DNA of 64,000 nucleotides from a virus: IMG/VR virus record IMGVR_UViG_3300027833_000025, positions 33,819 to 97,818 of that record; one strand, 5' to 3'. Position numbers and translations under genes: made by a program. The notes beneath the pieces were generated by a model. It worked only from the letters and a program-made list of their open reading frames with translations. It was not told the DNA's origin and did not search any database. Below are positions 5,063-29,434 of this stretch, piece by piece (positions within the stretch are counted from its first letter, which is position 1; every line of letters starts with the position of its first letter).

Positions 5063-5584
5063 ATGGAACAAACAGACATCATTGCCCAATTAGGTAAGAA
5101 CATAAAGAGAAATTCGGCATTGGAAACATTGATGCAAATTGATGGTGTATTAGAATCATTAAACGTATATGCATACAAGAACTGGATTGAAGGTGAGATT
5201 GTAGATGGTCCACAAATTGAGCGTTATTGGGTAACAGTGACTTTGTTATATCCACATAAGATGATGCCAGATCCAGATGGTGCAGATAGATTGCTTAAAA
5301 ATGGCTGCAAAGTATTCTATGCAAAAGACACACTTACCACCGCAGCAAAGTTAATTGAGCCAGAAGATTCTGAGATTGATCCAGAACGTCCAAACAAGCG
5401 TAGAGCAAAGAAGATACTACGACCAGTATGGTTGGTTACACTTGAAGTCCCACGTGGTTTAATAGACACCATTGAATCAAGTCGTGTGAAAGTAGATGAT
5501 ATGCAGTTTGACAGTGCAGCAGTTGAACAAGCATACGATGATAATCTAGGAGCAAGTGATGAAATCATATCAGACGACACTTAA
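5063..5584 (+). CDS. conserved late hypothetical protein
   Basis: CTAAATAC late box at 5028, GGAG RBS, 173 aa. Confidence 0.8.
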   Translation: MEQTDIIAQLGKNIKRNSALETLMQIDGVLESLNVYAYKNWIEGEIVDGPQIERYWVTVTLLYPHKMMPDPDGADRLLKNGCKVFYAKDTLTTAAKLIEPEDSEIDPERPNKRRAKKILRPVWLVTLEVPRGLIDTIESSRVKVDDMQFDSAAVEQAYDDNLGASDEIISDDT

Positions 5585-6056
5585 TGAAGCAGTGCAACAC
5601 AATGATCTACGTGGTCTTGTGAGCAATGTAGTTAGTATTGATCAATACAAAAGTAAGATTGGATATGATAAGAACATCGTTGTAGTCGCAATTGAAGTAA
5701 ATCACATCGAAGCAGCGTCAGACCTTAGTCAATTCATCGAAACTGGACACAAAGATGCACTAGATGTTGATGTATCAGTAGGACCCACTCCAGAAGGAAA
5801 ATATACAGTGTTTATTGAATACACACGTAGTAATTTTTTATTTAGGTTAATTGATGTTATGTTACAAGATATTTTAAATATTGACAATGAAGTAGAATCT
5901 TGGAAATTTGTAGCATACAAGGACACTATTCCAAAAGATTGGACTTCGGAAGAGTTTGAACAATCAGTACACACATCCAGTTATGAATATGTTATTGCAC
6001 ATGACCCAGATGCTAAAGTGATATCAGAAAGAATTAAGTTTTTGAATAGTTACTAA
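5556..6056 (+). CDS. hypothetical virion protein with capsid-targeting-like N-terminus
   Basis: Starts [10 protein letters not shown]|A, similar to T4 internal protein leader MKTYQEFIAE. Confidence 0.65.
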
Positions 6057-7304: not shown

Positions 7305-7997
7305 ATGAAACAAACAAATAGTAACCCTTGGGACATTTTAAATATAGCGACATCTTCATCCCAAGAAGAAATAAAGCAAGCATTTAAAAAACTTGCAATG
7401 AAGCATCACCCAGATAGAGGCGGCAAATCAGTCGAATTTAATCGTGTTGTTCAAGCATACGAACAACTACGAAAGAGTACTATCGTGCCTATTATTGTAA
7501 CTTCACATACACATTTAGTAAATGTAAAATTAACAATCAAGCAGCAGATAGAAGGTGTAGATGATTACATTGAGACAGATACTGGTGAGATATTGAAAGT
7601 AGCAATACCAGCAGGATCTAGGTTAGATGATAAGTATAAAGTAAACACTCCTATTGACAAATATATTGTTAATATCAAAGAATTATCACATAAAGTATTG
7701 ACAAGACAGGGATTATCGCTTATAATGAATATCACAATTGATATCGTAGATGCGATGCAAGGAAGTGTAATCCCAATTATAGGTCCATGTGACGAGCATT
7801 TAGAAATAGAAATCCCAGCGGGAGCGCAAGATGGGTTAGTCATTCTAGTACCTAACAAGGGCTTGATGAATAAACTAACAAAGAAGCGTGCAGGATTGCA
7901 CATTATTGTGAATACTGAAATCCCAAAATTAGATACTGATACTAGTATCGATCAATTTATATTAAGGTTAAGAGAATGTCAGAAATTGAAAACATAG
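7305..7997 (+). CDS. DnaJ/CbpA-like co-chaperone without zinc finger
   Basis: J domain with HPD (KHHPDRGG); C-terminal IPAG repeats of DnaJ_C. Confidence 0.9.
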   Translation: MKQTNSNPWDILNIATSSSQEEIKQAFKKLAMKHHPDRGGKSVEFNRVVQAYEQLRKSTIVPIIVTSHTHLVNVKLTIKQQIEGVDDYIETDTGEILKVAIPAGSRLDDKYKVNTPIDKYIVNIKELSHKVLTRQGLSLIMNITIDIVDAMQGSVIPIIGPCDEHLEIEIPAGAQDGLVILVPNKGLMNKLTKKRAGLHIIVNTEIPKLDTDTSIDQFILRLRECQKLKT

Positions 7998-10252
7998 TAG
8001 TTCGCGCTATTGATCTAGCAAAAAGTCATAATCATGAATACGTGACGCTAGAGCATTTATCGTTGGTAATTTTAGACGATACCGCAGTACGTATTATGTG
8101 TTACGAAATTCAAGCAGATTGTGAAAGTATACAACTCGCGATTGAGGATTACCTAGCAGCAGAATGTGATGAATTAGTTATGTCATCTGATGAAGAAATT
8201 ACTCCACGTAAGACACAAATGTTAGAGCGCGTATTCAATCGTGCAATGACACAGGCTGTATTTTACGGAAAGCAATCAATCAACAATGTTGATTTGCTAT
8301 TAAGTATTCTCTCAGAAGAGCAATCAGTAACAGCACATTTCGCATACGAATGTGGACTAGATAAGCATTCACTATCAGCGTGGTTGCATGATGTGAATTC
8401 AGTAATAAGTGAAGACTTTCGTGATGAAACAACAGGAACCAAACAGAAGCAAATACCTCGTAGTAATACAGCACCTTCGGCATTAGCACAATTCACTGTC
8501 AATATGAATGAAGAGTCAAGTAATTATGATGATGTAATTGGTCGCCGTGATGAATTACGTGATCTAGTACAGACACTTGCACGTAAGAAGAAATCTAATG
8601 CAGTGTTAGTAGGAGGTAGTGGTGTTGGTAAAACTGCTATTGTGGAAGGATTGGCAAAACTCATCGTAGAAGATGAAGTACCAGATGTTATCAAAGGTAA
8701 AACTGTATTAATGCTTGACATGGCAAAATTAGTCGCTGGTACTAAGTATCGTGGTGATTTCGAAGAGCGTATGAAGGCACTAGTTGAAGAATTAGAAAAG
8801 CGTGACGATATCATATTGTTCATTGATGAAATTCATATGGTAATTGGAGCAGGCTCAACTAGTGGTGGTTCTGGCGGTATGGATGCAGGAAACTTACTCA
8901 AACCCTCATTGTCAAGTGGTAAATTAAAAGTAATTGGTGCAACAACTGATCAAGAATATCGTAAATTATTTGAAAAAGAAGCAGCGTTAGCAAGAAGATT
9001 CACTAAGATTAATATCGAAGAGCCTACTTCCGAAGAAGCAAAGAAGATTATTCGTAATGCTGCTATGTCATATGAGATACATTATGGATTTGAAATTGAA
9101 CCATCTGCATGTGACTTAGCAGTTGATTTAAGTGCAGAGTATGTATTTAATAAGAAATTGCCAGATAAGGCATTCGATGTAATTGATCGTGCATGTGCAT
9201 TTAATAAGATTCAGCCTATCAATGAGCAAGTCACATTGATTACTGACGAAGCGATTCGTGCAGAATTATCTCGCTACACTGGTATACCAGCAGAGCATTT
9301 AGGAACTAAAGCAGAAGAACAAACAAACAACAAGCATATTCAAGTAGAGAATTTCTTGCGTAATAATGTATTTGGACAAGACGAAGCGATCAATCGTGTA
9401 ATCAATTCAATTACCATTAGTTTAGCAGGATTAAAAGAACCAAATAAGCCTATCGCAAGTTATTTATTCACTGGTCCAACTGGTGTTGGCAAAACGGAAA
9501 CAGCAAAGCGACTATCAGAGTCTATGGATATGAAACTCGTGCGATTTGATATGAGTGAGTATCAAGAAGCACATTCTGTATCGAAGTTGATTGGTTCACC
9601 TCCTGGTTATGTAGGTCATGGTGACGGAAAAGCAGGAGATGGTTTATTGATCACTGCATTGGAAGATTCACCAAATTGTGTGTTATTGTTAGACGAAGTA
9701 GAAAAAGCACATCCAGATATTATGTCAGTATTATTGGCATTATTAGACGATGGTGTGATCACATCAAGTACAGGAAAAAAAGTATCAGGTAAGAATTCAA
9801 TTATCATTATGACATCTAACTTAGGTGCGCGTGAAGGTTCAAAGAAAGCGATTGGATTTGGTGATCAAGCATATAACGCAGTAGCCGTTAATGAAGCAAT
9901 TAACAAATTCTTTGCACCAGAATTCCGAAATCGATTAGATGGTATTGTACAATTTAATGCATTAAAATTAAAATATATGCGCAGTATCGTTCTAAAGTTC
10001 TTAGGACAATTAGAAGGTTATATCGCATCACGTGGTGTTGAGATTGAATGGGACGAGAGTATATTAGTTTTCCTTGAAACAGAAGGTTATGATCCAGCAA
10101 TGGGCGCACGTCCTCTTTCACGACTAATCAACGAGCGTATTAAATTACCATTAGCAAAGCATATTATGAATGATACAATCACTGAAAAACTGATTATCAG
10201 TTATACAGATGGTGAAGTATTAATAACAACGAAAGAACTGGAGGCAGTGTGA
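7976..10252 (+). CDS. clpA: ClpA-like AAA+ unfoldase
   Basis: Clp-N domain (HEYVTLEH), two AAA modules (GGSGVGKT, GPTGVGKT), IGF loop, PEFRNRLD, MGARPL. Confidence 0.95.
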   Translation: MSEIENIVVRAIDLAKSHNHEYVTLEHLSLVILDDTAVRIMCYEIQADCESIQLAIEDYLAAECDELVMSSDEEITPRKTQMLERVFNRAMTQAVFYGKQSINNVDLLLSILSEEQSVTAHFAYECGLDKHSLSAWLHDVNSVISEDFRDETTGTKQKQIPRSNTAPSALAQFTVNMNEESSNYDDVIGRRDELRDLVQTLARKKKSNAVLVGGSGVGKTAIVEGLAKLIVEDEVPDVIKGKTVLMLDMAKLVAGTKYRGDFEERMKALVEELEKRDDIILFIDEIHMVIGAGSTSGGSGGMDAGNLLKPSLSSGKLKVIGATTDQEYRKLFEKEAALARRFTKINIEEPTSEEAKKIIRNAAMSYEIHYGFEIEPSACDLAVDLSAEYVFNKKLPDKAFDVIDRACAFNKIQPINEQVTLITDEAIRAELSRYTGIPAEHLGTKAEEQTNNKHIQVENFLRNNVFGQDEAINRVINSITISLAGLKEPNKPIASYLFTGPTGVGKTETAKRLSESMDMKLVRFDMSEYQEAHSVSKLIGSPPGYVGHGDGKAGDGLLITALEDSPNCVLLLDEVEKAHPDIMSVLLALLDDGVITSSTGKKVSGKNSIIIMTSNLGAREGSKKAIGFGDQAYNAVAVNEAINKFFAPEFRNRLDGIVQFNALKLKYMRSIVLKFLGQLEGYIASRGVEIEWDESILVFLETEGYDPAMGARPLSRLINERIKLPLAKHIMNDTITEKLIISYTDGEVLITTKELEAV

Positions 10253-11670
10253 GTGAATATGAAAATAATTCAGCAATTGTAGTTGAATATAAATCAAAGT
10301 ATTACAAAGTATTAGACAAAACAACGAAAGGACAGTTACAAGCAGCATGGGATATGAATGATTCAAGTAAAGATGATGATATGATTGAAGTAACATATCC
10401 ATCTGGTATGTCTGTTCATGCAGTACTCATTGTAAAAACAACAGCATCTACCGATACCGATTACCGCAATCTTGGTGGTAAATGCTTTTCCAAATATAAT
10501 AAAAAGTGCAATCATGTTTATTTTGAGTTTAATGATAAGACATCAGCGTTTATCATTGAAGGTGCACGACTTGCTGCATACTCATTCAGTAAGTACAAGA
10601 CAGATACAGAAAGTACTACGTTTACATATATTCATGGTACAGATTCAGTCAAAACCATTGAAGAAAGTGTGTTCTTGGCACGTGACCTAGTTACTGAGCC
10701 GGGTAACGAATTGTATCCAGAAGAGTACGCAGATCGTATCAACCAAATGTTAACACCTTTGGGTGTAACAGTAAAGATTATGCATGAGAAATTTCTACGT
10801 AAACTAGGATTTGATTTGCTATTGAGTGTTGGTGAAGGTTCTGATCGTGACAGTTATGTTGTTGTGATGGAACACATGAATGCTGATACAGACGCAGCAC
10901 CACTTGCTCTAGTAGGAAAGGGTGTTACATTTGATTCTGGCGGCATCTCACTAAAGCCTGGAAAGGGTATGGGAGATATGAAGACTGACATGGGTGGTTC
11001 AGCAGCAGTAGTTGGTGCTATGCACGCAATTGCTTCTCAGAATGTAAAAGCCAATGTAGTAGGAATCGTAGGACTTGTAGAAAACATGCCGTCTGGTGGT
11101 GCAACTCGCCCAGGTGATGTTATCGGGTCATTAAATGGTCAAACAGTCGAGAACTTGAATACAGATGCAGAAGGTCGCTTGGTACTTGCAGATATTCTAA
11201 CGTATGTACAAAATGAATACAAGCCAGCACAGATTATTGATTTAGCAACATTAACTGGTGCTATTTTGGTAACACTAGGTCACGAAGCAGCAGGTTTGTT
11301 TAGTAATTCTACTGGGTTCGCTAGTCATATTTCATCAGTTGGTTCAGATGCAGGAGAGAATTATTTCCGTATGCCAATGGGTAAAGTATGGAATAAGATG
11401 ATAGATTCCCCTATTGCTGATATGCAGAACATTGGCGGTCCGTATGGTGGTTCCACCACAGCAGCAGAGTTCTTGTATCGGTTCGTTGATAGTGATACTC
11501 CGTGGGCACATTTGGATATTGCAGGAATGGCATGGGCTGATAGTCCTAAAGATACCACACCTAAAGGTGCAGTAGGATTTGGTGTACGTACCCTGTACGA
11601 TATCGCCTGTGGTTTAAATCACGATCCAGCAACAACTCACTGGGCTATCGATCTAGATATGCAATACTAA
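10249..11670 (+). CDS. pepA: leucyl aminopeptidase (M17)
   Basis: VGKGVTFDSGG, MKTDMGG, NTDAEGRLVLAD, WAHLDIAG; GTG start. Confidence 0.95.
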   Translation: MSEYENNSAIVVEYKSKYYKVLDKTTKGQLQAAWDMNDSSKDDDMIEVTYPSGMSVHAVLIVKTTASTDTDYRNLGGKCFSKYNKKCNHVYFEFNDKTSAFIIEGARLAAYSFSKYKTDTESTTFTYIHGTDSVKTIEESVFLARDLVTEPGNELYPEEYADRINQMLTPLGVTVKIMHEKFLRKLGFDLLLSVGEGSDRDSYVVVMEHMNADTDAAPLALVGKGVTFDSGGISLKPGKGMGDMKTDMGGSAAVVGAMHAIASQNVKANVVGIVGLVENMPSGGATRPGDVIGSLNGQTVENLNTDAEGRLVLADILTYVQNEYKPAQIIDLATLTGAILVTLGHEAAGLFSNSTGFASHISSVGSDAGENYFRMPMGKVWNKMIDSPIADMQNIGGPYGGSTTAAEFLYRFVDSDTPWAHLDIAGMAWADSPKDTTPKGAVGFGVRTLYDIACGLNHDPATTHWAIDLDMQY

Positions 11671-11685
11671 TTTGATTGTTGTGTA

Positions 11686-11724
11686 CTCTCTTTATAATGA
11701 TAAATAGTATTGTTATAAAGAGAG
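11686..11724 (+). promoter_or_regulatory. late promoter (GATAAATAG) inside an inverted repeat covering the RBS
   Basis: CTCTCTTTATAA (11686-97) / TTATAAAGAGAG (11713-24), perfect 12-bp arms flanking TAAATA. Confidence 0.75.
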
Positions 11725-11733
11725 ATAAACCCA

Positions 11734-12591
11734 ATGGCATATAGAGGTATTCAAGCAACAAACTTAATAAGTGTAGACGCAGCATTTGATGATGCGTTGC
11801 TTATATTAAATAAATCAGGTACAACTCCAGTAGATGTGGGATTCTTAGGAAGAATTGGTCCGTCATCTTACTCTGGTCTTGTTAAAGATTCAGAAACAGA
11901 TTCGTTCATTCTAATTAACTCAATTAATTTAAGTTCACAATCTATTAATGATATCAGTCCATTAGATACAAGTATAGTAAAAGGCAATATTACAGTAGCA
12001 ACGATTACAGCAGATTCATTTGTTGGTAATATTAAAGGTAACATTTTAAATCCAACTACTGGTGCAATGGTAGTAAACGCCTCCGGAGGTATTTACACAT
12101 TAACAGGTAATGTAGCAGGCAACTTATATGGCGATGTACTTTCACCTACCCAAAATACGCCAATTATTACTACTGGTCCAGTAAGAGACACATTAACAAT
12201 CCATGATGCACATATTGAAAAAATAAAAGCACCTGCAAGTAGTGGCGGTGCAACAATACTTAACACTTCTGGAGCAACTACACTATCAGGACATAACGTT
12301 CATCTAACAGGATCACTATATGGTGATATCGGTGATACACTAGCAAATGATCCAGTGCTTACAGTTGGTACTGGCAATAATGATTCGCAAATAGCAGTAA
12401 CAGTAGCATCAATAGATGAATTGCAAGTTAATGACTCGTTTGTGTTACCAAAAGGTACAGCAGCACAGCATCCAGCCAATCCAGTTGAAGGACAGATGTT
12501 TTTCAATACAGAAACGAAACTGTTTGAAGGTTATGACGGAACATCATGGATACAATTCCTACCAACTACATTCTCAATGGCAACTCCTTAA
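11734..12591 (+). CDS. virion structural / fibre-like protein
   Basis: Late box upstream; G-N-L-x-G-D-V beta repeats; C-terminal LPKGT..Q.P..P.EG...FNTE...FEGYDG..W module common in phage structural proteins. Confidence 0.7.
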   Translation: MAYRGIQATNLISVDAAFDDALLILNKSGTTPVDVGFLGRIGPSSYSGLVKDSETDSFILINSINLSSQSINDISPLDTSIVKGNITVATITADSFVGNIKGNILNPTTGAMVVNASGGIYTLTGNVAGNLYGDVLSPTQNTPIITTGPVRDTLTIHDAHIEKIKAPASSGGATILNTSGATTLSGHNVHLTGSLYGDIGDTLANDPVLTVGTGNNDSQIAVTVASIDELQVNDSFVLPKGTAAQHPANPVEGQMFFNTETKLFEGYDGTSWIQFLPTTFSMATP

Positions 12592-18312: not shown

Positions 18313-18675
18313 ATGGAAGTAGAAGCAGTAATATTGTTCTTGTTAATGTGTAAACATTCAGTTGCAGATTTAGCATTACAGTCACTTAGAAAACCAACCA
18401 CAAAGCGACTTTATTTTAATAAAGGATTGCACATACATGCATTAGATCATGCGACACTAACACTAGTCGTATTGGTATTTTTTATTAATCCATGGCTTGC
18501 ACTTGCATTTGCTGTATTGGATTATGTAGCACACTGGCACATTGATTGTTTAAAATCAAAACTGCTATGGACATTTGGAATACCAAGAGATGGTTCAGTA
18601 TTTTGGTGCATACAAACATGCGATCAAATATCTCATTATGCAACATATGCATTAATCGTGTATTTAATATGCTAA
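18313..18675 (+). CDS. DUF3307-like membrane protein
   Basis: KH..AD..LQ, H...H, HW.ID..K, DQ..H. Confidence 0.75.
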   Translation: MEVEAVILFLLMCKHSVADLALQSLRKPTTKRLYFNKGLHIHALDHATLTLVVLVFFINPWLALAFAVLDYVAHWHIDCLKSKLLWTFGIPRDGSVFWCIQTCDQISHYATYALIVYLIC

Positions 18676-19085
18676 TTGGATTTGATTTAGTTAGATGCTT
18701 GAGCGACATATTAGAAAAAAAAGTAGAATATAATGACGTGTTACTCGTAATAACATGTGTTGAAATTGATTTTAGAGATGAAGATCAATGGAATATATTC
18801 TGGAAGAGTACGATTGACCCAATACATTTGATGCTGGGCAATAATAGACATAAATTACATCTTCACGATAAATCAGAAGTTCACAATTTGATAGATGATT
18901 TATTATATGATGGAAAATTAGTAAAACGAGAACGCACACATGTGCTAGATTCAATAAGTAGTCTGCCAGGACATTGGCACGATATTATCCCATTAGAAGA
19001 ACATATGACACCCGCTGTACAAGACGCTTGGAATTATTTTAAGATGCTTGAGGCATTATGTCGCACAGGCAAAAACCCAACTTAA
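18669..19085 (+). CDS. hypothetical protein
   Basis: Start MLIGFDLVRCLSDI chosen to minimise overlap. Confidence 0.65.
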   Translation: MLIGFDLVRCLSDILEKKVEYNDVLLVITCVEIDFRDEDQWNIFWKSTIDPIHLMLGNNRHKLHLHDKSEVHNLIDDLLYDGKLVKRERTHVLDSISSLPGHWHDIIPLEEHMTPAVQDAWNYFKMLEALCRTGKNPT

Positions 19086-19135
19086 ATTAAACAACAGCAT
19101 AAATACTACTAATATAAATTAATAGAGGTATTTTC

Positions 19136-19360
19136 ATGTCATTAGAAGAAGAAATTGAACAATTAAAGAAATTAGCAGGCATATACGATAAGGATAAAGA
19201 TATCGTAGATGGTGATGATGAATCTAATATATCAATAACAGGTTCAGAAAAGCGTAAAATTGAACGAGATAATAATATACAGCCAGGAACACCAGAATGG
19301 TTTAAGTTATGGTTTTCGTTGCCAAAAATGACAGGCGAAAAGCCGTTTGAAAAGGAATAG
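19136..19360 (+). CDS. small late protein
   Basis: CATAAATAC 19098; LKKLAGI motif; IQPGTPEWFKLWF. Confidence 0.75.
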   Translation: MSLEEEIEQLKKLAGIYDKDKDIVDGDDESNISITGSEKRKIERDNNIQPGTPEWFKLWFSLPKMTGEKPFEKE

Positions 19361-19363
19361 ATT

Positions 19364-20584
19364 ATGAGATTAAATGAATTTGATGATTCACTGAGTAGAG
19401 CAGACTTAGATGCGTTAGAAGTTTTTGCAGACAAAGTATTTGGTAAAGTAGGCATTGATGTAAACTTCACACGACACTTCTTAGATAGAGTAAATGACGA
19501 GCGCAACATTAAGCAGATCACCAAAGGTGAATTGACTCGCTTGTTCAAGCAAGAAGCAAAACGTTGGGCAAAGCCTATTGCTAGATTGGGACCAGATGCA
19601 GAAGGTACTATGAAGGATTTACAGACACAGATAAATCTACCATTTGTATTAGTATGGGATCATAATAATCAAGAACTTGATTTGATTGCTAAGACTGTTA
19701 TGCGCAAAAAAGATTTTAAGACTCATAACACAGAATTTCCAGTAGAATCAATCACCGAAGGCGACTCTGCTCCGGGCGCTGGTGCTATACATCATTCAGA
19801 AATTGCTCCAACTCTACAGAATCTAGAACAGAAATTGGGTATACCTTTAATGAAAAATGCACTAGGTAGTGTTGGCAAAAAAGAGTTTAGTGGAGACATT
19901 GATATTGCAGTGCAACTAACTAAAGAAGAGCAAGATGATTTTCAAAAGAAACTACAATCAACACCTGGACTTACATTTGTGCAAAAAACAGGTGTATTCA
20001 TTACAAGTGCCGATATTGTTGGATACGATGATAGTAAGCAAGCAGATGGAAAGCAACGCACTGGCAAAGTACAAATTGACTTTATGCCGGGCGACATAGA
20101 CTTCATGAAGCACTACTATCATTCTCCACACTCAAAAGAGATGAGCCAAGATGGTAAAAGTAGTAACTACAAAGGTGTTCACCGTAATCTTATGGTTAGT
20201 GCAATGATTGACAAAATTGACGTTAAATCAAGTGATGAAACTACACCAGATGGTAGACCACTTGAAATAGAACGCTGGATGTTCTCACCGACACAGGGCA
20301 TGGTGCGTGTAATTCGTAGACCAGTAGAAAAGAAGAATGGTACTGGTTATACAAAAGCAAATACTAATGAAGTAATCAAGGGTCCATTTAAAAATCCAGC
20401 AGAGTGGGCAAAAATATTAAAGTTAGACAATGCTGATGATCTATACAGTTTTGAATCGTTATATGCTGCTGCTAAGAAAAATTACCCATCAGATTTAGTT
20501 CAGAAGGTAGTTAGTGATTTTAAATCTAATCCTACTATTATAAAGCAAGGTATACCAACCGAATTAGAGGAACAAGTAAAATGA
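19364..20584 (+). CDS. putative internal head polyprotein: N-terminal domain + Pol-beta-type nucleotidyltransferase
   Basis: Leader MRLNE; linker FPVE-SITE|G; LGSVGKKEFSGDIDIAV (hGS..DxD) and VQIDF third Asp. Confidence 0.75.
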   Translation: MRLNEFDDSLSRADLDALEVFADKVFGKVGIDVNFTRHFLDRVNDERNIKQITKGELTRLFKQEAKRWAKPIARLGPDAEGTMKDLQTQINLPFVLVWDHNNQELDLIAKTVMRKKDFKTHNTEFPVESITEGDSAPGAGAIHHSEIAPTLQNLEQKLGIPLMKNALGSVGKKEFSGDIDIAVQLTKEEQDDFQKKLQSTPGLTFVQKTGVFITSADIVGYDDSKQADGKQRTGKVQIDFMPGDIDFMKHYYHSPHSKEMSQDGKSSNYKGVHRNLMVSAMIDKIDVKSSDETTPDGRPLEIERWMFSPTQGMVRVIRRPVEKKNGTGYTKANTNEVIKGPFKNPAEWAKILKLDNADDLYSFESLYAAAKKNYPSDLVQKVVSDFKSNPTIIKQGIPTELEEQVK

Positions 20585-21021
20585 GAATACAAGATTTATA
20601 TGAAGCAAAAAAGAAGAAAACAAAAAGATTAGATCCTGAATGTTGGGATGGTTATAAAAAAGATGGTACAAAAATAGACAATGGTGTTCGTGTAAACAAT
20701 TGTGTCATAGAGGTTAGTGAAGACGAATACACATACGAAGGTGAATTAAGTATGTTGTATGATGAATTAGAAATCTTAGACGAAGCAGAATACCAAGGTC
20801 GTAAAGTTAAACTAGGCAAGCCTTCACGAGGTGATGTTAAGAAGTTCAAAGTGTATGTAAAGAATGACAAAGGTAACGTAGTTAAAGTTAACTTTGGTGA
20901 TCCTGATATGCGCATTAGAAAGTCTAATCCAGCAGCAAGAAAGAGTTTTCGTGCACGTCATAAGTGTGCTGATAAAAAAGATAGAACCACAGCAGGATAT
21001 TGGTCTTGTAAAAAATGGTAA
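20581..21021 (+). CDS. putative internal head protein, basic Cys/Trp modules
   Basis: Leader MRIQDLYE|A; CWDGY module; ILDE|AEYQGRKVKL...ARKSFRARHKC..YWSC module. Confidence 0.7.
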   Translation: MRIQDLYEAKKKKTKRLDPECWDGYKKDGTKIDNGVRVNNCVIEVSEDEYTYEGELSMLYDELEILDEAEYQGRKVKLGKPSRGDVKKFKVYVKNDKGNVVKVNFGDPDMRIRKSNPAARKSFRARHKCADKKDRTTAGYWSCKKW

Positions 21022-21029
21022 TATAGTAT

Positions 21030-22028
21030 ATGAAAATTAGTGAAATAGTAGAACCAACGAAACTAACATTACCTACGATAGAAGTAGGTGATGAAGTGCT
21101 GGTTGGTAAATTCAAGAACAGTAAAGCAACTGTAAAGGGGTTTACAAAAGATGCTTACAATCAACCTGTAATGAAGACTACAAAGGGTGATAAGAAGGTA
21201 TTCAAAGATAGACATAGTAAATTGGTACAAGAAGATCAATCGCCAGCATTGCCAGTTACATCAGTAAAAAATTTATATCATGTTGGCACATTAGATGCGT
21301 CAAAGAAGCGTGATGGATATGAGGGCGCAGGGTTGAGCGTAAGTACCCATCCAGATGATTGGAAAAAGATTGCTAGAGGACATGTAACTGGGGATACATA
21401 TAGTGCTACTAAAGATGGAAACAGATTCCTAAATGCACATGCACTTACAGATTCGCATGACGAAGTAATCAAACAATGGGCAATTGAAAATGGATACTTA
21501 GAACAGCAAGAAACTGTTACAGTATGTTACTATGATGATGAAATGGAAGATGACCTTTGTTCAACTTTCAATTCAATGGCAGATGCAGAATATGAATATG
21601 ATGGTGAATTAGAACACTATGACGTTGAAGTAGACAAGGGTGGTATTGTTCCAACTGATAAACTGAAAAAAGCAGCAAGACAGAAACGCATGGAATCAAC
21701 TGGCGTACTAGACTTTGTTCTACCCTTATATGCAGAGCAAGCAGGACTTGATGGGGTATGGTGGCAAGATACGCTAGATGTAAGTAGATATTCAGCACCT
21801 CGTGGTGTTATTGTTCCTAGCAAAATTGACTCTTGGGAGTTTAAAGTAAACGAATCAATAGTAGAAGATGGTAAGATTGTGCAAGGTGTTAATACCACAG
21901 TAGATGTAAAGCCGGGTGAAACTGAGCGACAAGCAGCAAAGTTCGGAAACAAAATGACAAAGAAAGGTCCGCCTATATTGGGTGGCAGTTCATCTCATAA
22001 ATTATTTAATATGGGACTAGGAGAATAA
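21030..22028 (+). CDS. putative internal head polyprotein with ADP-ribosyltransferase-like domain
   Basis: Leader MKISEIVE; LYHVGT, G.GLSVS, GLDGV, GVIVPSKI resemble the ART-PolyVal pattern; LVQE and VNE/IVE junctions. Confidence 0.55.
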   Translation: MKISEIVEPTKLTLPTIEVGDEVLVGKFKNSKATVKGFTKDAYNQPVMKTTKGDKKVFKDRHSKLVQEDQSPALPVTSVKNLYHVGTLDASKKRDGYEGAGLSVSTHPDDWKKIARGHVTGDTYSATKDGNRFLNAHALTDSHDEVIKQWAIENGYLEQQETVTVCYYDDEMEDDLCSTFNSMADAEYEYDGELEHYDVEVDKGGIVPTDKLKKAARQKRMESTGVLDFVLPLYAEQAGLDGVWWQDTLDVSRYSAPRGVIVPSKIDSWEFKVNESIVEDGKIVQGVNTTVDVKPGETERQAAKFGNKMTKKGPPILGGSSSHKLFNMGLGE

Positions 22029-22030
22029 TA

Positions 22031-23161
22031 ATGAAAATTAATGAAGTTGTTACCATTAAAGAAGATGCTATGGAAATAGCGAAGACATTGATGTCATTGT
22101 CTGGTGAAGAGATAGTAGCATTAAGCGCAGCACTGACTATGACAGTTCCCGTATTGAAAGGATTGTTTAAAACTGGTAAAGGCATCATGAAAGTGAAGCG
22201 TATGATGGATAGAGCAAGTGTGCGTATCGCTAATGGCATTGTTAAAGAAGATCGTATTAATGAAATAGAGTATTCATCAGATGTTCAAAAAGATGATATG
22301 TCAAAGTATGATCTAGATGACATGATAGGATCAACTGAATCAACTGGTAAGAAGATAAACGGATATGAGATTCATACAATTGATGAAGGTGATGTATCAT
22401 TCTTGGTAAAAGAGCCATACGGTGACGGATTTTTAGGTGAGTTACGATTAAAACCTGAACACAAGTATGAAGGAATGCATAAGAGTGTTGTGTTCTTTGA
22501 TGAAGTGATTCAAGGAAAAGGTATAGCACCATTATTGTATAAAATGGCGATAGTTGATTATGGTCATACTATTGTTAGTGATTATAAGCAGTCCAAAGGT
22601 AGCAAGACCTTATGGGAACGATTAGCAAAGATGTCTGGTGTGTTTGTGTATGGATGGAATCCAAGAGCAAAGGGTGATAAAGAATTTTTTCAATGGGATC
22701 CTACTGAAGACTCCGACAGTGTAATTTATCATGGTGATTCATCAACTGATGTATTAAGAGATGAATTAGATGCATTAATGAAAGATATTGGTAGTCGTAA
22801 GCAATCAGGTGAATTGTCAGCAGAACAAGCACAGGTAGAGTGGAACGAAGGTAAAAAAGAAATCAGTGCTGAATTAAAAGATGCAGACTTAGTTAGATAC
22901 AATGACATTAGACTAATTGCAACAGCAGATAATAACTTAGACGAGTCTATAGGAGCATTAATGGGTATGATATTACCAACACACGCAGCAATGTACAAAA
23001 AAGCAGCAGCAATGATGTCAGAATTTCATGATGAATATCCATCATATGGATTGAACAAACTTGCAGCATTAGTATCAAGACGCACCGCAAAAGATTTTGA
23101 CAGACGTGCTTTGGTACAAACTTACAAAAAGCAGTATCCTTCATCAAATATAGAAGAATGA
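22031..23161 (+). CDS. putative internal head polyprotein with GNAT acetyltransferase domain
   Basis: Leader MKINEVVTIKE; IQGKGIAPLLY (motif A), SD.KQS.GSK.LWERL; IVKE/RINE and NLDE junctions. Confidence 0.7.
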   Translation: MKINEVVTIKEDAMEIAKTLMSLSGEEIVALSAALTMTVPVLKGLFKTGKGIMKVKRMMDRASVRIANGIVKEDRINEIEYSSDVQKDDMSKYDLDDMIGSTESTGKKINGYEIHTIDEGDVSFLVKEPYGDGFLGELRLKPEHKYEGMHKSVVFFDEVIQGKGIAPLLYKMAIVDYGHTIVSDYKQSKGSKTLWERLAKMSGVFVYGWNPRAKGDKEFFQWDPTEDSDSVIYHGDSSTDVLRDELDALMKDIGSRKQSGELSAEQAQVEWNEGKKEISAELKDADLVRYNDIRLIATADNNLDESIGALMGMILPTHAAMYKKAAAMMSEFHDEYPSYGLNKLAALVSRRTAKDFDRRALVQTYKKQYPSSNIEE

Positions 23162-23167
23162 GTAATA

Positions 23168-23548
23168 ATGGATATTACAGTACGTAGACTAACGCCTGCT
23201 GATGTTTATAAACTGCAAAGTATAGTAAAGGAAGATATAGCAAAAAACGCATATATCACTTGGCCCTTTACTAGAGAGATAGCATTGTCGTTTATTACTG
23301 AATACAACACATGGGGTATTTGGCTCAATGATGGTATACTTGCTGGTGCGATTGAGATAAAAGATACGCATGAAACTGCATATTTGGTTGCTACAATATA
23401 TCAAAATAATGGTATTGCTACAGCAGCAATTGAGCAGATAAAAGAAATATATCATTATAGACAATTATGGTGCAAGATAAATCCAAATAATAAAGCGAGT
23501 TTAAAAGTTGCAAACAAAACACATATGAGAGTTCAGTTTTATAGATAA
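23168..23548 (+). CDS. GNAT acetyltransferase (RimJ/RimL-like)
   Basis: YQNNGIATAA, INPNNKASLKVA. Confidence 0.85.
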   Translation: MDITVRRLTPADVYKLQSIVKEDIAKNAYITWPFTREIALSFITEYNTWGIWLNDGILAGAIEIKDTHETAYLVATIYQNNGIATAAIEQIKEIYHYRQLWCKINPNNKASLKVANKTHMRVQFYR

Positions 23549-23570
23549 ATAGTAATGCAGGAGGCAGATT

Positions 23571-23825
23571 ATGGCGAACAAGAAAGTAGAGAATCATGAT
23601 ATCGAAGATTTACATGGTCCCATGAATAGTGTTGCAAAAGAAGATGCAAAAATATGGACAGGTCTAGAAAATAAAAAAGAATCAGAATATGAATTACATG
23701 AACATAGGACAGTAGTCGCAAAAAAGCAGAAAGCGAAGAAATCTAGTAAAAAGCAAGATAGGCGAATATCGAAGCAATTAGTCAAACAAACTGACAATGG
23801 ACAAAGTGCATTATTGCATAAATAA
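23571..23825 (+). CDS. basic late hypothetical protein
   Basis: GATAAATAG 23544, GGAGG RBS. Confidence 0.7.
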   Translation: MANKKVENHDIEDLHGPMNSVAKEDAKIWTGLENKKESEYELHEHRTVVAKKQKAKKSSKKQDRRISKQLVKQTDNGQSALLHK

Positions 23826-23829
23826 TATT

Positions 23830-24039
23830 ATGAAAATAAATGAAATTATAAGTGAAGAGGCAGCAACAGGTGATACGATGTCTGGCAATTTTGGTGCTGT
23901 TTCGTTCCCAATGACACCTGGAACTACGAAAATGGCTGCTAGAAAGGCAGTTGATCCTAAAGGACATTTAGGTTTAGGTAAATCAAATAAATCTTTTAAA
24001 GGATTTAGACAATACAAGTTGGATAAAAAAGATAAATGA
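23830..24039 (+). CDS. small putative internal head protein
   Basis: Leader MKINEIISEE|A followed by basic peptide. Confidence 0.65.
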   Translation: MKINEIISEEAATGDTMSGNFGAVSFPMTPGTTKMAARKAVDPKGHLGLGKSNKSFKGFRQYKLDKKDK

Positions 24040-25217
24040 AATTCGAACAATTAAATGAGAAGTCAACATTACCATTATCACAAGAAGTTTCTAACTTACT
24101 TGGACGTGGTGATACAGTTTATATTCAAATTGATGATGCTAATGTAGCAGAAATAGTAGGAGTCAATCTTGACAAAGATAAGCGAACCGTAATTGTAGGA
24201 TTTGGTAAATCTAGAAAATCTATCCCAGTACATAACGACACATACAGAATTGATGATAGCGAGGGCTATAACGTAATTCGTAAAATTAAAGAATCAAACA
24301 TACAGGAAATTCCCATGACAAACAAAAAAATTAACGAAGGCGCATTTGGCGACTTAGCCAACGTAGCAGAACGTGATCACGAAGTGCAAATGGCACGTGC
24401 TGATCTATATAAGATAGCAAAATATGCTATGAAACTTCATGATATGTTAAAATCTGTATCAGAAGTAGAAGGTATTCAAGGTTGGCAGCAAGCTAAAATT
24501 ACTATAGCAGCAGACGATATATCAAGTGTGTACCATGCAATGGATTACGATATGATGGATCTAGATGCAGACTATGACGTAGATGAAGGAATTTCGTCTA
24601 GACCAGGCTTGAGTGCTCCATTGAAGCGTACCATTGAAAATTTACCACATTTGGTAGGCGATAAAGTTGCTGATGAACGATGGGAAGCGAAAAGAGCAGC
24701 AAAGAAAGCAGCAGTCGAAAAGCGTGGTTTAAATGCATTATTTGCTGGTGCTGGAGATACCAACTCTGTTATCACACGTCAGCGTACAGAAATGGACAAT
24801 GAAGGTAGCGCAGGCAACATATATAAAGATGGTGTTGATCAAGGTATGTATGAAATTGACACAAACGCAGATACTTTATTTTTTAATAATCAAGGGTTTG
24901 ATTCGTTTGAAGATGTAGCAGCAGCATTGGGTGGTGAATTCTCTTGGGATGAATCTGCAAAATTAAACAATGTGACCGAAGCAACTGGAACACAAGAAGG
25001 AGATCGTATGTACAAAGTTGTACACGCAAAGAAAAATCCAATTGAAGTTTCAGCATCAACTAGTTACGAAGCAGCAACAAAAGCAGCAGCGATTTGGAAA
25101 TTAAAATCAACAGCAGGTATTTCCCCGTATCTATTAGATATGAAACATGTTTCAGAACAAGCATCATCTATGTTTGAATCTGCTAGAAAGAAAGCAAAAT
25201 TAAAAGCGAAAAAATAA
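24036..25217 (+). CDS. putative internal head polyprotein
   Basis: Leader MKFEQLNE; internal IKE, IQE, INE, VDE, VTE, VSE sites between small domains; DHEVQMAR..W..AKIT helical domain. Confidence 0.7.
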   Translation: MKFEQLNEKSTLPLSQEVSNLLGRGDTVYIQIDDANVAEIVGVNLDKDKRTVIVGFGKSRKSIPVHNDTYRIDDSEGYNVIRKIKESNIQEIPMTNKKINEGAFGDLANVAERDHEVQMARADLYKIAKYAMKLHDMLKSVSEVEGIQGWQQAKITIAADDISSVYHAMDYDMMDLDADYDVDEGISSRPGLSAPLKRTIENLPHLVGDKVADERWEAKRAAKKAAVEKRGLNALFAGAGDTNSVITRQRTEMDNEGSAGNIYKDGVDQGMYEIDTNADTLFFNNQGFDSFEDVAAALGGEFSWDESAKLNNVTEATGTQEGDRMYKVVHAKKNPIEVSASTSYEAATKAAAIWKLKSTAGISPYLLDMKHVSEQASSMFESARKKAKLKAKK

Positions 25218-25381
25218 TGTTTGAACCATCACTAGAAAGTAGAAATGAATGTAATCAATGCGGTGGAGTTTGTCATGGCAAAGCCGCAAGATATCGCACA
25301 CTAACAATATTGGGCGAAATACCAAGACGAATCAAAGTGTGTGATTCATGTCAGTGCAAGAAGTGTATACCAGAAGACTAA
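25217..25381 (+). CDS. Cys-rich small protein (54 aa, not in ORF track)
   Basis: TAATG coupling; CNQCGGVCH ... CDSCQCKKC. Confidence 0.65.
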   Translation: MFEPSLESRNECNQCGGVCHGKAARYRTLTILGEIPRRIKVCDSCQCKKCIPED

Positions 25382-25391
25382 GAGAACTATT

Positions 25392-26393
25392 ATGAAAGCA
25401 ACTCAATTTTTACAAGAAGGATCCCTGACCAATCAAGAATTACGCAAGTATGGTGGTAAGCGGTTGGATTTATTCATAGCAAAGATTCAATCAGGTTCTC
25501 CATTTGTAAAAGCAGGAGAAACTGAACCTTCTATTGTGTTAGTTAATGACCCAGATATTATTGAGCGTTTAAAGAATAACGATATCCCTGCGATGTTTGA
25601 TATGGAAGAAGGCGGTTCAATTCGTCTTACTCAATTACAAAAAACTAAAGAATTCGGTAGCACAGGTAGTAAGAAAGACACCTCTGAAAAGCAAGAACAT
25701 GGTTTAATAGAAATAATCAATAATAATCCAGGTTGTATGATTAGCAAAATGGGTATTACCGCACAATCAGCGCGTGGCAATGAAGGTTTGAATGCCATGA
25801 AGAAAGAACGATACATTGATATATTCATAACTGACAGTAAAGGAAAAGATCACGGTATCTCTATGAAAGGAACAACTGCTCCATCATTAGGTGGCGGTGG
25901 CGCAGCAGGAATCAATTCTGTAGCCCCAGATTTATTCAAAAAGATATTCGCAAGAATTGAACAGTTCATGAAGAATGAATTACAATTAACCAATGGTGAT
26001 ATTATTGCATCAAAGCATATCCCAGATATATTTGTTCGTGTACCAGATGATTATGTGGAAGTCATAATGAAGGGTAACGAAGCAATGGGTGGCCCTATTG
26101 ATTATATGTATGTAGGTCCTATGGATGCTATCGGAGAAGTTGATAATAATAATATGTTGAATTTAAATGGAAAATTCTATACAATAGAAGAGTACATTAA
26201 TAAAATCGGTAATTTCTACTTTAGAATACGTAAGCGTGACATAGCAGATAATAAGACAGTTCAAGTGGCGTATGATGAAAAGAATACACTCGGTCTGCCT
26301 AAGTTATTAAAAAATCCTGAAACTCATAAAAACAATTTAAGACTAGTTGTTACTAATAAACCTTCTACAACAGGTATTATCTTAGACTTGTAA
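25392..26393 (+). CDS. putative virion-borne PD-(D/E)xK-like nuclease
   Basis: Leader MKATQFLQE|G; E....I then IDIFI......GISMK catalytic-like pattern. Confidence 0.55.
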   Translation: MKATQFLQEGSLTNQELRKYGGKRLDLFIAKIQSGSPFVKAGETEPSIVLVNDPDIIERLKNNDIPAMFDMEEGGSIRLTQLQKTKEFGSTGSKKDTSEKQEHGLIEIINNNPGCMISKMGITAQSARGNEGLNAMKKERYIDIFITDSKGKDHGISMKGTTAPSLGGGGAAGINSVAPDLFKKIFARIEQFMKNELQLTNGDIIASKHIPDIFVRVPDDYVEVIMKGNEAMGGPIDYMYVGPMDAIGEVDNNNMLNLNGKFYTIEEYINKIGNFYFRIRKRDIADNKTVQVAYDEKNTLGLPKLLKNPETHKNNLRLVVTNKPSTTGIILDL

Positions 26394-26456
26394 TATGTCA
26401 CGATTGCACTACTCAGTGCAATTATCATTACCTTTGTAAATAACCTAAAAAATCAA

Positions 26457-26485
26457 TTGACAACTCTGTGTTTATAGTGTATTAT
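26457..26485 (+). promoter_or_regulatory. sigma70-type promoter for replication genes
   Basis: TTGACA-17-TATTAT. Confidence 0.7.
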
Positions 26486-26791: not shown

Positions 26792-29434
26792 ATGAGTTAT
26801 GTCGATGGATTAATTGATCGTGACAGAGACATCATTCATGTGGTTGAACGTGTGAATGGTGTCCGTCGTTACTTAGAATATCCTGCACATCATACATTGT
26901 ACTATCCGTCACCGAAGGGAAAATATACTTCTATCTTTGGTGACACGTTAGAGCGAGTAGTGTGTAATTCTGGTCGCAAGTTTGCCGCAGAGAAAAAGTT
27001 ACACCATCGCAAAGGTTTATTTGAGAGCGACACAAACCCAGTGTTTCGTTGTCTCGCAGATAATTATCTTGATGCTGAACCACCAACACTCAATGTGGCA
27101 TTATTCGATATTGAAACAGACTTTAATAGAGAGATAGGTTATGCACCACCAGATGATCCGTTTAACGCGATCACTGCTATATCAGTGCATATGAGTTGGA
27201 TGAAGCAAACAGTGTGTTTGGTAATCAAGCCTAGTTCAATGACTGAGGAAGATGCACAAGCGATTGTTGATAGGTTTGACAATGCTATCTTGTGTGATAG
27301 CGAAGAAGCAATGTTGACTTCATTCTTAGAGTTGATAGACGATGCCGATATATTGACAGGTTGGAATAGTGAAGGATTTGATATACCATACACAGTAAAT
27401 CGTGTATCGCGTGTATTGAGCAAGAGTCACACACGACAGTTCTGTCTCTGGGATAAATTTCCGAAGCAAAAAGAAGTTGTTAAATTCGGCAAAGAAACAC
27501 AAACTTATGACTTGATTGGTCGTATACATCTTGATTATCTTGAATTGTATCGTAAATACACATATCATGAAATGCACTCATACTCACTTGATGCTATCTG
27601 TGAATATGAACTAGGTGATCAAAAAGTTGAATACGAAGGAACACTTGATCAGTTATACAATAATGACTTTTTTAAGTTCATTCAGTATAGTATACAAGAT
27701 GTTGACTTGATGGTTCGGTTAGATGAAAAACTTCAATTTATTGATTTGGCAAATCTTATTGCACACTCAAACACCGTACTATTACCAACTACCATGGGAT
27801 CAGTGGCACAGATTGATCAGGCAATAATCAATGAAGCACATTCACAAGGTTTAATTGTGCCTGACAAGAAGCGTGGTGAAAAACCTATTGCAGCAGCAGG
27901 CGCGTATGTAGCAACACCGATCAAAGGTGTTCATAGAGACATCGCATCAATTGACTTGAATTCATTATACCCATCTATCTTACGTGCATGTAATATGTCT
28001 ACTGAGACAGTTATCGGTCAGATAAAGCACGTGCACACTAGAAAGATGCTTGAAGATCATGACTTTAACGTACCGAAGGCGTGGGAAGGTAGATTCGCTT
28101 GTATAGAATATGAAATGGTCATGGAAAAGAATACCACATCATTACTTACACTTGAATTTGTAGACGGAACTGCTCATACCTTATCTGGTGCTGAGATATA
28201 CGAACTTGTATTTGAAAGCGATCAGCCTTGGATACTTACTGCTAATGGTACATTGTTCACACACGAAAAGAAAGGAATTGTACCTAAATTACTTGAAACT
28301 TGGTATGCTGAACGTAAAATATTACAAACAAAAGCACGAGATGCGCGTGATGAAGGTGGTGATAAGTTTGCATATTGGGATAAGCGACAGTTAGTTAAAA
28401 AGATTTTGCTTAACTCATTGTATGGTGCTTTATTGAATCCTGGAAGTCGTTTCTTTGACGAGCGATTAGGACAGTCTACTACCTTAACAGGTCGTTGTAT
28501 TGCACGACATATGGCAGCATCATTAAATGAAGTCATTACTGGTGAGTATGATCACAAAGGTAAATCCATTGTATATGGTGATACTGACTCTACTTATTTT
28601 AGTGCATATCCTATTTTAAAAGATCAGATTGCAGCAGGTTCAATTAATTGGGATAATGACACAATGATTTCATATTATGATGCAGTGTGTGGAGAAGTAG
28701 ATACTACGTTTGCAAAATTCATGATGGACACCTTTCATACCACCCATGAGTTAGGAGTAATTATTGCAGCAGCACGTGAAGTGGTGGCTACTTCGGGTCT
28801 GTTTGTAATAAAGAAGCGTTATGCACTTATGGTGATTGATAACGAAGGCAAGCGCGAAGATGTAGAAGGTAAGCCTGGCAAGATCAAAGCAATGGGACTT
28901 GACTTGAAGCGAAGTGATACACCTAAGTTCATGCAGGAGTTCTTGAAAGAGATTCTTGGAATGGTACTAACTGGTATTGAAGAATCCATAGTAATAGATC
29001 GTATTGTGAAATTTCGCAGCGAGTTTAGAGCAATGGATAGTTGGCAGAAGGGTACACCTAAACGTGTAAACAACTTGACTAATCATACAAAGAAATATAA
29101 TAAGATTGGCAAGTGTGGCGTTGGTCATGCAATGGCAGCAATCAATTGGAATCGTTTGAAGAAGATAAACGATGATGCATATAGCATGGATATCACTGAT
29201 GGTATGAAAACTATTGTATGTAAGTTGAAGAAAAACCCAATGGGTATGACTAGTATTGGTTATCCGACTGACGCGAAGCGTATACCTGATTGGTTTAAAG
29301 AACTACCATTTGACGACGGCTTAATGGAAGAAACTATCATCACAAAGAAGATTGAAAATCTAATCGGTGTTTTGAAATGGGATTTACAATCAGCAGCAGC
29401 GAATAATACATTCTCTGATTTATTTGAGTTTTGA
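26792..29434 (+). CDS. family B DNA polymerase (gp43-like)
   Basis: Exo DIETD and N..GFD; Pol DLNSLYPS, K..LNSLYG, YGDTDS, KKRY. Confidence 0.97.
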   Translation: MSYVDGLIDRDRDIIHVVERVNGVRRYLEYPAHHTLYYPSPKGKYTSIFGDTLERVVCNSGRKFAAEKKLHHRKGLFESDTNPVFRCLADNYLDAEPPTLNVALFDIETDFNREIGYAPPDDPFNAITAISVHMSWMKQTVCLVIKPSSMTEEDAQAIVDRFDNAILCDSEEAMLTSFLELIDDADILTGWNSEGFDIPYTVNRVSRVLSKSHTRQFCLWDKFPKQKEVVKFGKETQTYDLIGRIHLDYLELYRKYTYHEMHSYSLDAICEYELGDQKVEYEGTLDQLYNNDFFKFIQYSIQDVDLMVRLDEKLQFIDLANLIAHSNTVLLPTTMGSVAQIDQAIINEAHSQGLIVPDKKRGEKPIAAAGAYVATPIKGVHRDIASIDLNSLYPSILRACNMSTETVIGQIKHVHTRKMLEDHDFNVPKAWEGRFACIEYEMVMEKNTTSLLTLEFVDGTAHTLSGAEIYELVFESDQPWILTANGTLFTHEKKGIVPKLLETWYAERKILQTKARDARDEGGDKFAYWDKRQLVKKILLNSLYGALLNPGSRFFDERLGQSTTLTGRCIARHMAASLNEVITGEYDHKGKSIVYGDTDSTYFSAYPILKDQIAAGSINWDNDTMISYYDAVCGEVDTTFAKFMMDTFHTTHELGVIIAAAREVVATSGLFVIKKRYALMVIDNEGKREDVEGKPGKIKAMGLDLKRSDTPKFMQEFLKEILGMVLTGIEESIVIDRIVKFRSEFRAMDSWQKGTPKRVNNLTNHTKKYNKIGKCGVGHAMAAINWNRLKKINDDAYSMDITDGMKTIVCKLKKNPMGMTSIGYPTDAKRIPDWFKELPFDDGLMEETIITKKIENLIGVLKWDLQSAAANNTFSDLFEF

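Follow-up and report, generated by a model that had tools for sequence, protein, structure and literature searches.

Leader-bearing, multi-module proteins upstream of the polymerase gene of an uncultured giant phage: a candidate locus of capsid-targeted cargo

Why should a row of unrelated phage proteins begin with nearly the same few residues, and why should similar residues recur where their modules join? Both questions are raised by a locus of 11 tightly packed plus-strand open reading frames (ORFs), at 19136-26393, that immediately precedes the polymerase unit in the DNA of an uncultured giant phage. The phage is known from a contig fragment, the linear 97.8-kb IMG/VR record IMGVR_UViG_3300027833_000025, of which bases 33819-97818 form the stretch analysed here (64,000 nt; the window, whose coordinates are used unless stated otherwise). 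CheckV puts the completeness of the contig at 27%, implying a phage genome of roughly 360 kb, and its family-B DNA polymerase (PolB) has its best matches among jumbo phages, namely the RaK2/121Q group, Phosso, Atu_ph07 and a Vibrio phage (43-49% identity). A first-pass annotation made from the letters of the window proposed that the locus proteins are packaged, cut into separate modules and injected. Having followed this up, we consider it fairly probable (about 0.65) that the locus encodes T4-style capsid-targeted cargo, cut by a prohead protease and ejected into the host. The N-terminal tag and its portability, the motif at the junctions, the folds of the modules, the promoter-like boxes and the detection of homologues in the virions of cultured relatives have direct support here; for the source phage itself we infer packaging, cleavage, ejection and host targets.

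N-terminal leaders and the joints between modules

A leader of the form M-(K/R)-hydrophobic-x-x-hydrophobic-x-E, 8-11 residues in length, opens 7 of the 11 ORFs (Table 1). All seven lie exactly where the first-pass annotation had placed them, and the eighth that it had listed, at 5556, is also real, that ORF having a GTG start there and its ATG at 5559. The pattern M[KR]..[ILV]xE within 13 residues was found in 6/11 locus ORFs vs 8/142 other ORFs on the contig (Fisher p=7e-5, post hoc); the seventh leader sits at an internal start, 23830. For replication on independent DNA, IMG/VR was then scanned with the polymerase N-terminus, giving 579 PolB relatives, and 80 loci were kept for comparison. 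The leader is present on 149 of the 769 ORFs upstream of PolB in these loci vs 5 of the 440 downstream. Protein clusters are bimodal for it, some having it on nearly every member (28/30, 22/23, 6/6, 5/5) and others on none (0/78, 0/47, 0/46), and it is fused in this all-or-none manner to around 20 unrelated clusters. A logo of 79 distinct N-termini reads Met, Arg/Lys, Ile/Leu/Ala/Phe, any residue, Glu/Asp/Gln, Ile/Leu, a hydrophobic residue and Glu at 8 or 9, with positions 3 and 6 each ~95% hydrophobic. No shared DNA recombination or start box was seen upstream of the leader starts, where upstream DNA and codon choices differ, and therefore the signal lies at the protein level.

Moreover, the leader is portable. 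Across the close relatives used for architecture comparison (L001-L006) it is retained while the modules behind it are inserted, deleted or swapped. One relative of the 406-aa protein keeps the leader and lacks residues 8-128 (~120 residues), leaving the nucleotidyltransferase (NTase) module almost directly after it, and relatives of the 393-aa protein have a ~90-residue module inserted straight after the leader and the middle replaced. For an ADP-ribosyltransferase (ART)-like domain of ~210 aa, phage copies in wider databases are mostly leader-first, while bacterial-type copies have no leader and start at the domain.

The joints between modules carry a related motif, hydrophobic-x-Glu. Similarity breakpoints in the 80 loci numbered 418 distinct positions, of which 34.9% fall within 4 aa of [ILV]xE vs 14.2% for random positions. 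With G, D, S or A next after [ILV]xE the enrichment at breakpoints is 3.4-fold, and with F, M, Y or W at P3 it is 2.3-fold; the control motifs are unenriched ([ILV]xD 0.8x, reversed Ex[ILV] 1.07x, [AGS]xE 1.2x). The breakpoints and homologues behind these statistics are phylogenetically related, so that z-scores are inflated, while the ratios stay informative. Both enrichment at module boundaries and module shuffling among relatives were among the checks put forward in the first-pass annotation, and those of its checks that could be made in silico all turned out in its favour.

Individual proteins show the same arrangement. The L001 counterpart of the 332-aa protein is 121 aa, the deletion running exactly from the V-Q-E↓D site to the I-V-E↓D site (the arrow marks the candidate cut). 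The N- and C-modules of this protein occur alone, with leaders of their own, in relatives and in Phosso, where the leader of the standalone C-module ends L-L-E and the module opens with the identical D-G-K. In metagenomic homologues the ART module is flanked by hydrophobic-x-Glu sites in every context. The NTase module always starts G-G-(A/S)-M-P-G-V-G right after such a site, whether it stands behind a 4-5-residue leader, a leader plus basic peptide, or other domains. Sites divide the 393-aa protein into N- and C-modules that are conserved and a middle that varies, and polyprotein relatives in metagenomes reach >1,400 residues. Inside modules the motif is depleted, to 0.35 of shuffled in the NTase module and 0.50 in the ART module, contig control proteins being at 1.14; the 406-aa protein has just three hydrophobic-x-E sites over its full length. 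All nine internal sites that the first-pass annotation had put at domain boundaries exist, and most fall at module junctions seen by comparison: for LVQE↓D and SIVE↓D the fit is exact, SITE↓G lies where the NTase begins, ILDE↓A where the phrog_7595 match begins, and KINE↓G and NVTE↓A where the sequences diverge. Two in the 376-aa protein do not, RINE↓I lying 4 and NLDE↓S 13 residues off their junctions. An intein origin of the in-frame middle modules was considered and dropped, as the boundaries are without intein residues.

These features might be explained with neither proteolysis nor packaging, if the leaders were a translation-start or recombination convention and the joints were leader relics of gene fusion and splitting. 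Certain internal joints do look leader-like (K-V-N-E-S-I-V-E vs M-K-I-N-E-I-V-E), the genes are tightly packed and have been fused and split repeatedly in relatives, and M-K starts are common in AT-rich genomes (31/153 ORFs on this contig). However, such an origin sits poorly with the lack of a common DNA box, with a leader nearly absent downstream of PolB at equal composition, and with a P1' preference for G/S/A/D while D-ending and reversed motifs are unenriched. The depletion of sites inside modules and the detection of homologues in virions (see below) also speak against it, and we regard it as unlikely.

Predicted folds of the modules

Searches of the locus proteins against Pfam, PHROGs, NCBIfam and PDB sequences were almost empty apart from the 126-aa GNAT protein, and profile scans for peptidase families gave none at E up to 10. 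In the AlphaFold2 model of the 332-aa protein, the predicted local distance difference test (pLDDT) score exceeds 90 for about residues 71-280 only, i.e. between the joints. In an exhaustive structural comparison of this module, the top 14 of 48,161 chains were all ART-type folds, among them MbcT (Z 6.8, root-mean-square deviation (rmsd) 3.5, 117 aligned), diphtheria toxin (6.3) and the anti-CRISPR protein 6kyf (5.9); a RES toxin, ParT and a cyanophage pre-ejectosome protein were further matches. Since Z is below 8 this support is moderate. Foldseek gave no significant match for the model, the fold being seen only with the exhaustive aligner, and hmmscan of the module matched neither PF18760 (ART-PolyVal) nor PF26151 (AcrIF11). 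Its language-model neighbour clusters carry PF18760/PF26151 (score 0.91), the nearest named cluster being ART-PolyVal, and the homologue P0092 has a precomputed PF18760 assignment. We assign residues 69-279, with moderate confidence, to a predicted ADP-ribosyltransferase-fold domain.

The 333-aa protein was modelled at pLDDT 90, with a disordered leader followed by a small N-domain and a C-domain. Foldseek matched the latter to 2fkc_A (E=9e-4, prob 0.97), and its Z scores to HinP1I, MspI and HhaI are 7.9, 7.8 and 7.5 (rmsd 3.9 over 170 aligned for the alignment at 7.9). Residues E139, D143 and S157-x-K159 are invariant in the family; these acidic and S-x-K residues resemble the D..Q-x-K of HinP1I. 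Residues 97-333 are thus modelled as a HinP1I/MspI-type PD-(D/E)xK fold that carries the acidic and x-K motif, with putative nuclease activity.

The middle of the 376-aa protein appears GNAT-like through its homologues, 10/50 of which match PF00583; the window protein itself does not. The NTase module (residues 133-406 of the 406-aa protein) had no Pfam, NCBIfam or PDB sequence match, and its label as a candidate pol-beta-type nucleotidyltransferase comes from motifs: a G-S, a D-x-D and a third acidic residue, invariant in 32 homologues. Of the module names given in the first-pass annotation, therefore, ART-like, GNAT and nuclease hold at the level of fold or profile and NTase at that of motifs, while the 'host-takeover or anti-defence' role attached to them we can only infer.

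The conserved N-module of the 376-aa protein (22031-22330) has a hydrophobic helix of ~15 residues followed by a basic stretch, and a similar module occurs in the metagenomic polyprotein P0012. This part may act on membranes or bind the core.

Late boxes, head proteases and virion proteins of relatives

The heptamer ATAAATA is under-represented in the window (24 copies vs 38 expected), and of the 34 contig copies 17 stand no more than 60 nt upstream of a start on the same strand vs 4.7% expected. For this phage clade it is probably the core of the late promoter, and the boxes are compatible with a T4-like late promoter. The two in the locus, at 19099 and 23545, correspond closely to the late boxes of the first-pass annotation. 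A strong sigma-70-like promoter opens the polymerase unit (26457-26485), and the locus therefore ends before it. No intrinsic terminator was found after the locus by a terminator scan. A hairpin with a 7-bp stem and no T-run, which the scan did not call, lies at 26404-26421, just past the stop of the last locus gene. Copies of ATAAATA just upstream of gene starts in the window include those at 11700, 12622, 15745, 16292, 16735, 19099, 23545, 34299, 36506 and 46677.

The first-pass annotation had expected a prohead protease elsewhere in the genome. A search for Peptidase S77 succeeds in 4/4 complete relatives, namely RaK2, PA5oct, Phosso and Sf-FS3; for the source phage the gene was not found, the contig being a fragment. 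In RaK2 a portal-protease-capsid module lies just upstream of the polymerase, and its proteins begin with similar N-termini ending hydrophobic-x-Glu. Its scaffold-like ORF093 has 25 hydrophobic-x-Glu sites, its ORF090 has a leader of the same kind, and capsid protein cleavage has been inferred for this phage (PMC3622015). The Phosso gene that follows the protease starts M-R-A-S-E-L-F-E.

Two of these relatives supply virion data or annotation. In PA5oct the NTase homologue is annotated as a structural protein identified through tandem mass spectrometry with electrospray ionization (ESI-MS/MS), within a run of virion proteins, and it is adjoined by a homologue of the 333-aa protein (34% identity, E=2e-41). 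PA5oct gp150, encoded between portal and protease, shares 8/9 leader residues with the 69-aa protein of the window and was detected in the virion by mass spectrometry. In RaK2 the homologue of the ORF at 5559 is ORF169 (tblastn, 38.7% identity), a virion structural protein according to RefSeq with the N-terminus MKEQLNE.

In the Synechococcus phage Sf-FS3 (L092 in our set; host Synechococcus sp. WH8102), which encodes S77, leaders very near the T4 capsid targeting sequence were seen on two proteins. One is a cytidylyltransferase-like protein (7744-9033) beginning x-K-S-F-L-E-F-I-T-E↓A, the other a 106-aa protein (12194-12514) between two structural genes, with M-R-S-F-K-Q-F-M-S-E↓S. It is through this phage that the context of the homologue P0214, with its T4-like targeting sequence, was seen.

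The position of PA5oct gp150 and RaK2 ORF090 inside the portal-protease-capsid module could also mean that the leader-bearing proteins are packaged and processed for the sake of assembly. They would then be mostly head-core or scaffold parts and internal peptides, cf. T4 gp22, gp67, gp68 and the small peptides cut from these, largely expelled or inert and not injected effectors. Several products are indeed small, basic or acidic, and without an enzyme fold (the 69-aa, 84-aa and 393-aa proteins and the C-module of the 332-aa protein), and the core proteins of T4 have many LxE/IxE sites at which they are cut (PMC9026906). However, four modules have enzyme folds or motifs together with conserved catalytic-type residues, and module content is highly variable among close relatives, which would be unusual for essential assembly parts. 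This alternative is, in our estimate, no likelier than that of fusion relics.

The coordinates of the locus and its neighbours are collected in Table 1. On the source contig, upstream of the window, are two more leader ORFs outside the locus, at contig positions 12993-14225 (410 aa) and 18545-18862 (105 aa); the 105-aa protein matches phrog_15050 'virion structural protein' over its full length. The last 80 residues of the 146-aa protein (20785-21018) have a DNA-level match, at 72-77% identity, to Pelagibacter podo- and siphophages and a Flavobacterium myophage, and the sharing of this phrog_7595 domain hints at a marine host range and a wide horizontal spread of the module. At 7976-11670 of the window stands a 758-aa ClpA/B-like double AAA+ protein (phrog_4871 'ATP-dependent protease', E=8e-231), with a leucyl aminopeptidase of full length (NCBIfam NF002077, E=8e-155) behind it. 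Such a protein-quality-control pair is unusual in a phage, and it lies upstream of late, structural-looking genes.

Table 1. Features of the leader-bearing locus and its neighbours in the window. Arrows mark candidate cuts.
Feature	Position	Strand	Remarks
Leader-bearing protein outside the locus	5559..6056	+	phrog_13138, E=4e-23; homologue of RaK2 ORF169
ATAAATA box, T4-late-promoter-like	19099..19105	+	30 nt before first locus ORF
74-aa ORF, no K/R leader	19136..19360	+	C-terminal part is an internal module of leader-bearing polyproteins in relatives
406-aa protein, leader MRLNE (19364-19378)	19364..20584	+	Optional N-module, residues 6-132 (phrog_23027); site ITE↓G 19751-19759
Candidate pol-beta-type NTase module of 406-aa protein	19760-20581	+	G-S..D-x-D..D invariant in 32 homologues
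146-aa protein, leader MRIQDLYE	20581..21021	+	Cys-containing N-part; site LDE↓A 20776-20784; C-terminal domain, residues 67-146, phrog_7595
332-aa protein, leader MKISEIVE	21030..22028	+	N-module to E68; site VQE↓D 21225-21233; predicted ART-fold module, residues 69-279
332-aa protein, C-end	site IVE↓D 21858-21866	+	Followed by 53-aa C-module
376-aa protein, leader MKINEVVTIKE	22031..23161	+	N-module with hydrophobic helix; site INE↓I 22256-22264; site LDE↓S 22937-22945; C-module
GNAT-like middle of 376-aa protein	about 22334-22900	+	Absent in L002-L005; joined to other modules in relatives
126-aa GNAT acetyltransferase, no leader	23168..23548	+	PF13302, E=1e-9
Second ATAAATA box	23545..23551	+	19 nt before ORF 23571
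84-aa basic protein, no leader	23571..23825	+	Conserved in relatives
69-aa protein, leader MKINEIISE	23830..24039	+	Leader on 22/23 cluster members
393-aa protein, leader MKFEQLNE	24036..25217	+	Sites INE↓G 24330-24338, VDE↓G 24579-24587, VTE↓A 24972-24980
54-aa Cys-rich ORF, no leader	25217..25381	+	–
333-aa protein, leader MKATQFLQE	25392..26393	+	N-domain, residues 8-92; predicted HinP1I/MspI-like domain, residues 97-333 (25680-26390)
Sigma-70-like promoter, TTGACA-17-TATTAT	26457..26485	+	11/12 matches; precedes 84-aa ORF and PolB
PolB	26792-29434		Family-B DNA polymerase

Known systems and the favoured reading

Under the capsid-cargo reading, the locus would be expressed as a late operon. 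The N-terminal tag would dock the seven proteins on the prohead scaffolding core, and a Peptidase S77 prohead protease would cut after hydrophobic-x-Glu, taking off the tag and splitting the multi-module proteins at their joints. Once freed, the modules would remain with the DNA in the head and reach the host at infection. Besides several small basic peptides, the cargo would comprise a predicted pol-beta-type NTase, ART-fold domain, GNAT-like domain and HinP1I-like nuclease.

The closest parallels are with T4, in whose capsid targeting sequence of 10 residues the targeting positions are spaced three apart and processing is at I-x-E, and whose Alt protein is cut at both ends (PMC9026906). The T4 tag has been suggested to be a device of evolution by which varied proteins can be loaded (PMC9026906). 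Like IPI, IPII, IPIII and Alt (PMC9026906; Mullaney and Black 1996 cited there), the locus proteins have an N-terminal tag (7-19 residues in this group) with hydrophobic positions three apart and an (L/I)-x-E end, at which the prohead protease cuts in T4 and would cut here. As in the T4 targeting sequence, Met and Lys/Arg are followed by hydrophobic residues at 3 and 6 and by Glu, here at 8-9, although the tag described here is one residue shorter in register. As among the T4 internal proteins, the tag stands on unrelated non-essential proteins including an ADP-ribosyltransferase (a predicted one here), expression is late (here judged from the promoter-like boxes) and the locus varies among relatives. 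Unlike T4, several of the proteins here are chains of 2-3 shuffled modules with extra cut-type sites at the joints, the cargo includes restriction-nuclease fold, NTase and GNAT domains, and the system is known from sequence alone. The IPI, IPII, IPIII and Alt families were not among the Pfam, PHROGs and NCBIfam matches, and no direct sequence comparison with them was made.

A second parallel is with the polyvalent proteins (Iyer et al. 2017, PMC5512222), in which several conflict-type domains (ART, GNAT, nucleases, NTases) share a polypeptide in a late or structural phage context. These have been predicted to be packaged and injected, as is proposed here, and show extensive domain shuffling; in the present set, too, there are polypeptides with at least two unrelated conflict-type domains, in shuffled architectures. 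However, the locus proteins are small, with 2-3 modules, and have a T4-type tag. Moreover, many polyvalent proteins have an embedded peptidase such as MPTase (common, not universal), whereas none was detected here, and release is predicted to occur via the prohead protease at the joints.

The third comparison is with phiKZ and SPN3US, whose ejection and inner-body proteins undergo cleavage at (S/A/G)-x-E or A-x-E by gp21-like proteases (PMC10052503). There also a gp21-family protease trims propeptides, sometimes by several cuts, off packaged proteins that enter the host. In contrast, P3 is hydrophobic here and a small residue there, and their propeptides are 20-254 aa while the tag here is a portable one of 8 residues; modular enzyme chains do not occur there. 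Within the literature that was searchable, we found no paper on protease-jointed cargo chains. Given a layout like the T4 tag system combined with modular enzyme chains like those of polyvalent proteins, capsid-targeted, protease-jointed cargo is favoured, and the locus would merge the principles of T4 internal proteins and polyvalent proteins.

Several results weigh against this reading. The leader is absent from 4/11 locus ORFs. The nuclease-fold family has no depletion of hydrophobic-x-Glu (0.94 of shuffled), and the two domains of the 333-aa protein are not parted by a cut-type site. Genome-wide in PA5oct, 3/6 ORFs with a strict leader are positive by mass spectrometry vs a background of 20%, which is not significant (binomial p ~0.10). 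Lastly, Peptidase S77 (PF03420), the major capsid protein Gp23 (PF07068) and a late sigma factor of the RaK2 gp55 type were found neither on the contig nor on 24 related fragments, by an S77 search for which the complete relatives serve as positive control; since the contig and fragments are 1-56% complete, the missing genes say little.

That the proteins are cytoplasmic polyproteins, cut by another phage or host protease to free enzymes late in infection without capsid entry, is improbable: the window does code for the ClpA/B-like AAA+ protein and the leucyl aminopeptidase, and S77 was not found for the source clade, but an aminopeptidase and an unfoldase give no endoproteolysis at such sites, T4 gp21 has cleavage behind hydrophobic-x-Glu as its documented rule (its homologues in giant phages cut after A-x-E, as in SPN3US), and the leader layout matches a capsid targeting sequence.

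More tentatively, and with the odds slightly against it, capsid-targeted cargo of this kind could be a general plug-in system of marine T4-superfamily phages, in which modules behind an 8-residue tag, bracketed by hydrophobic-x-Glu↓Gly/Ser joints, are loaded, released and injected. If so, these phages would shuffle at the joints a ready-made arsenal of restriction-type nuclease, ADP-ribosyltransferase, acetyltransferases and nucleotidyltransferase, and a packaged restriction-like nuclease, delivered beside phage DNA that is presumably modified, would attack host DNA in a new way. Should the capsid-cargo reading be true, the tag and the joint rule would allow injected first-strike proteins to be read straight from sequence. 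It would indicate many unexplored anti-defence or takeover enzymes, and nature's own rules for designing phage heads loaded with foreign proteins. T4 capsid targeting would then extend beyond the few internal proteins of coliphages, as a delivery platform that is evolvable and widespread among abundant uncultured marine phages.

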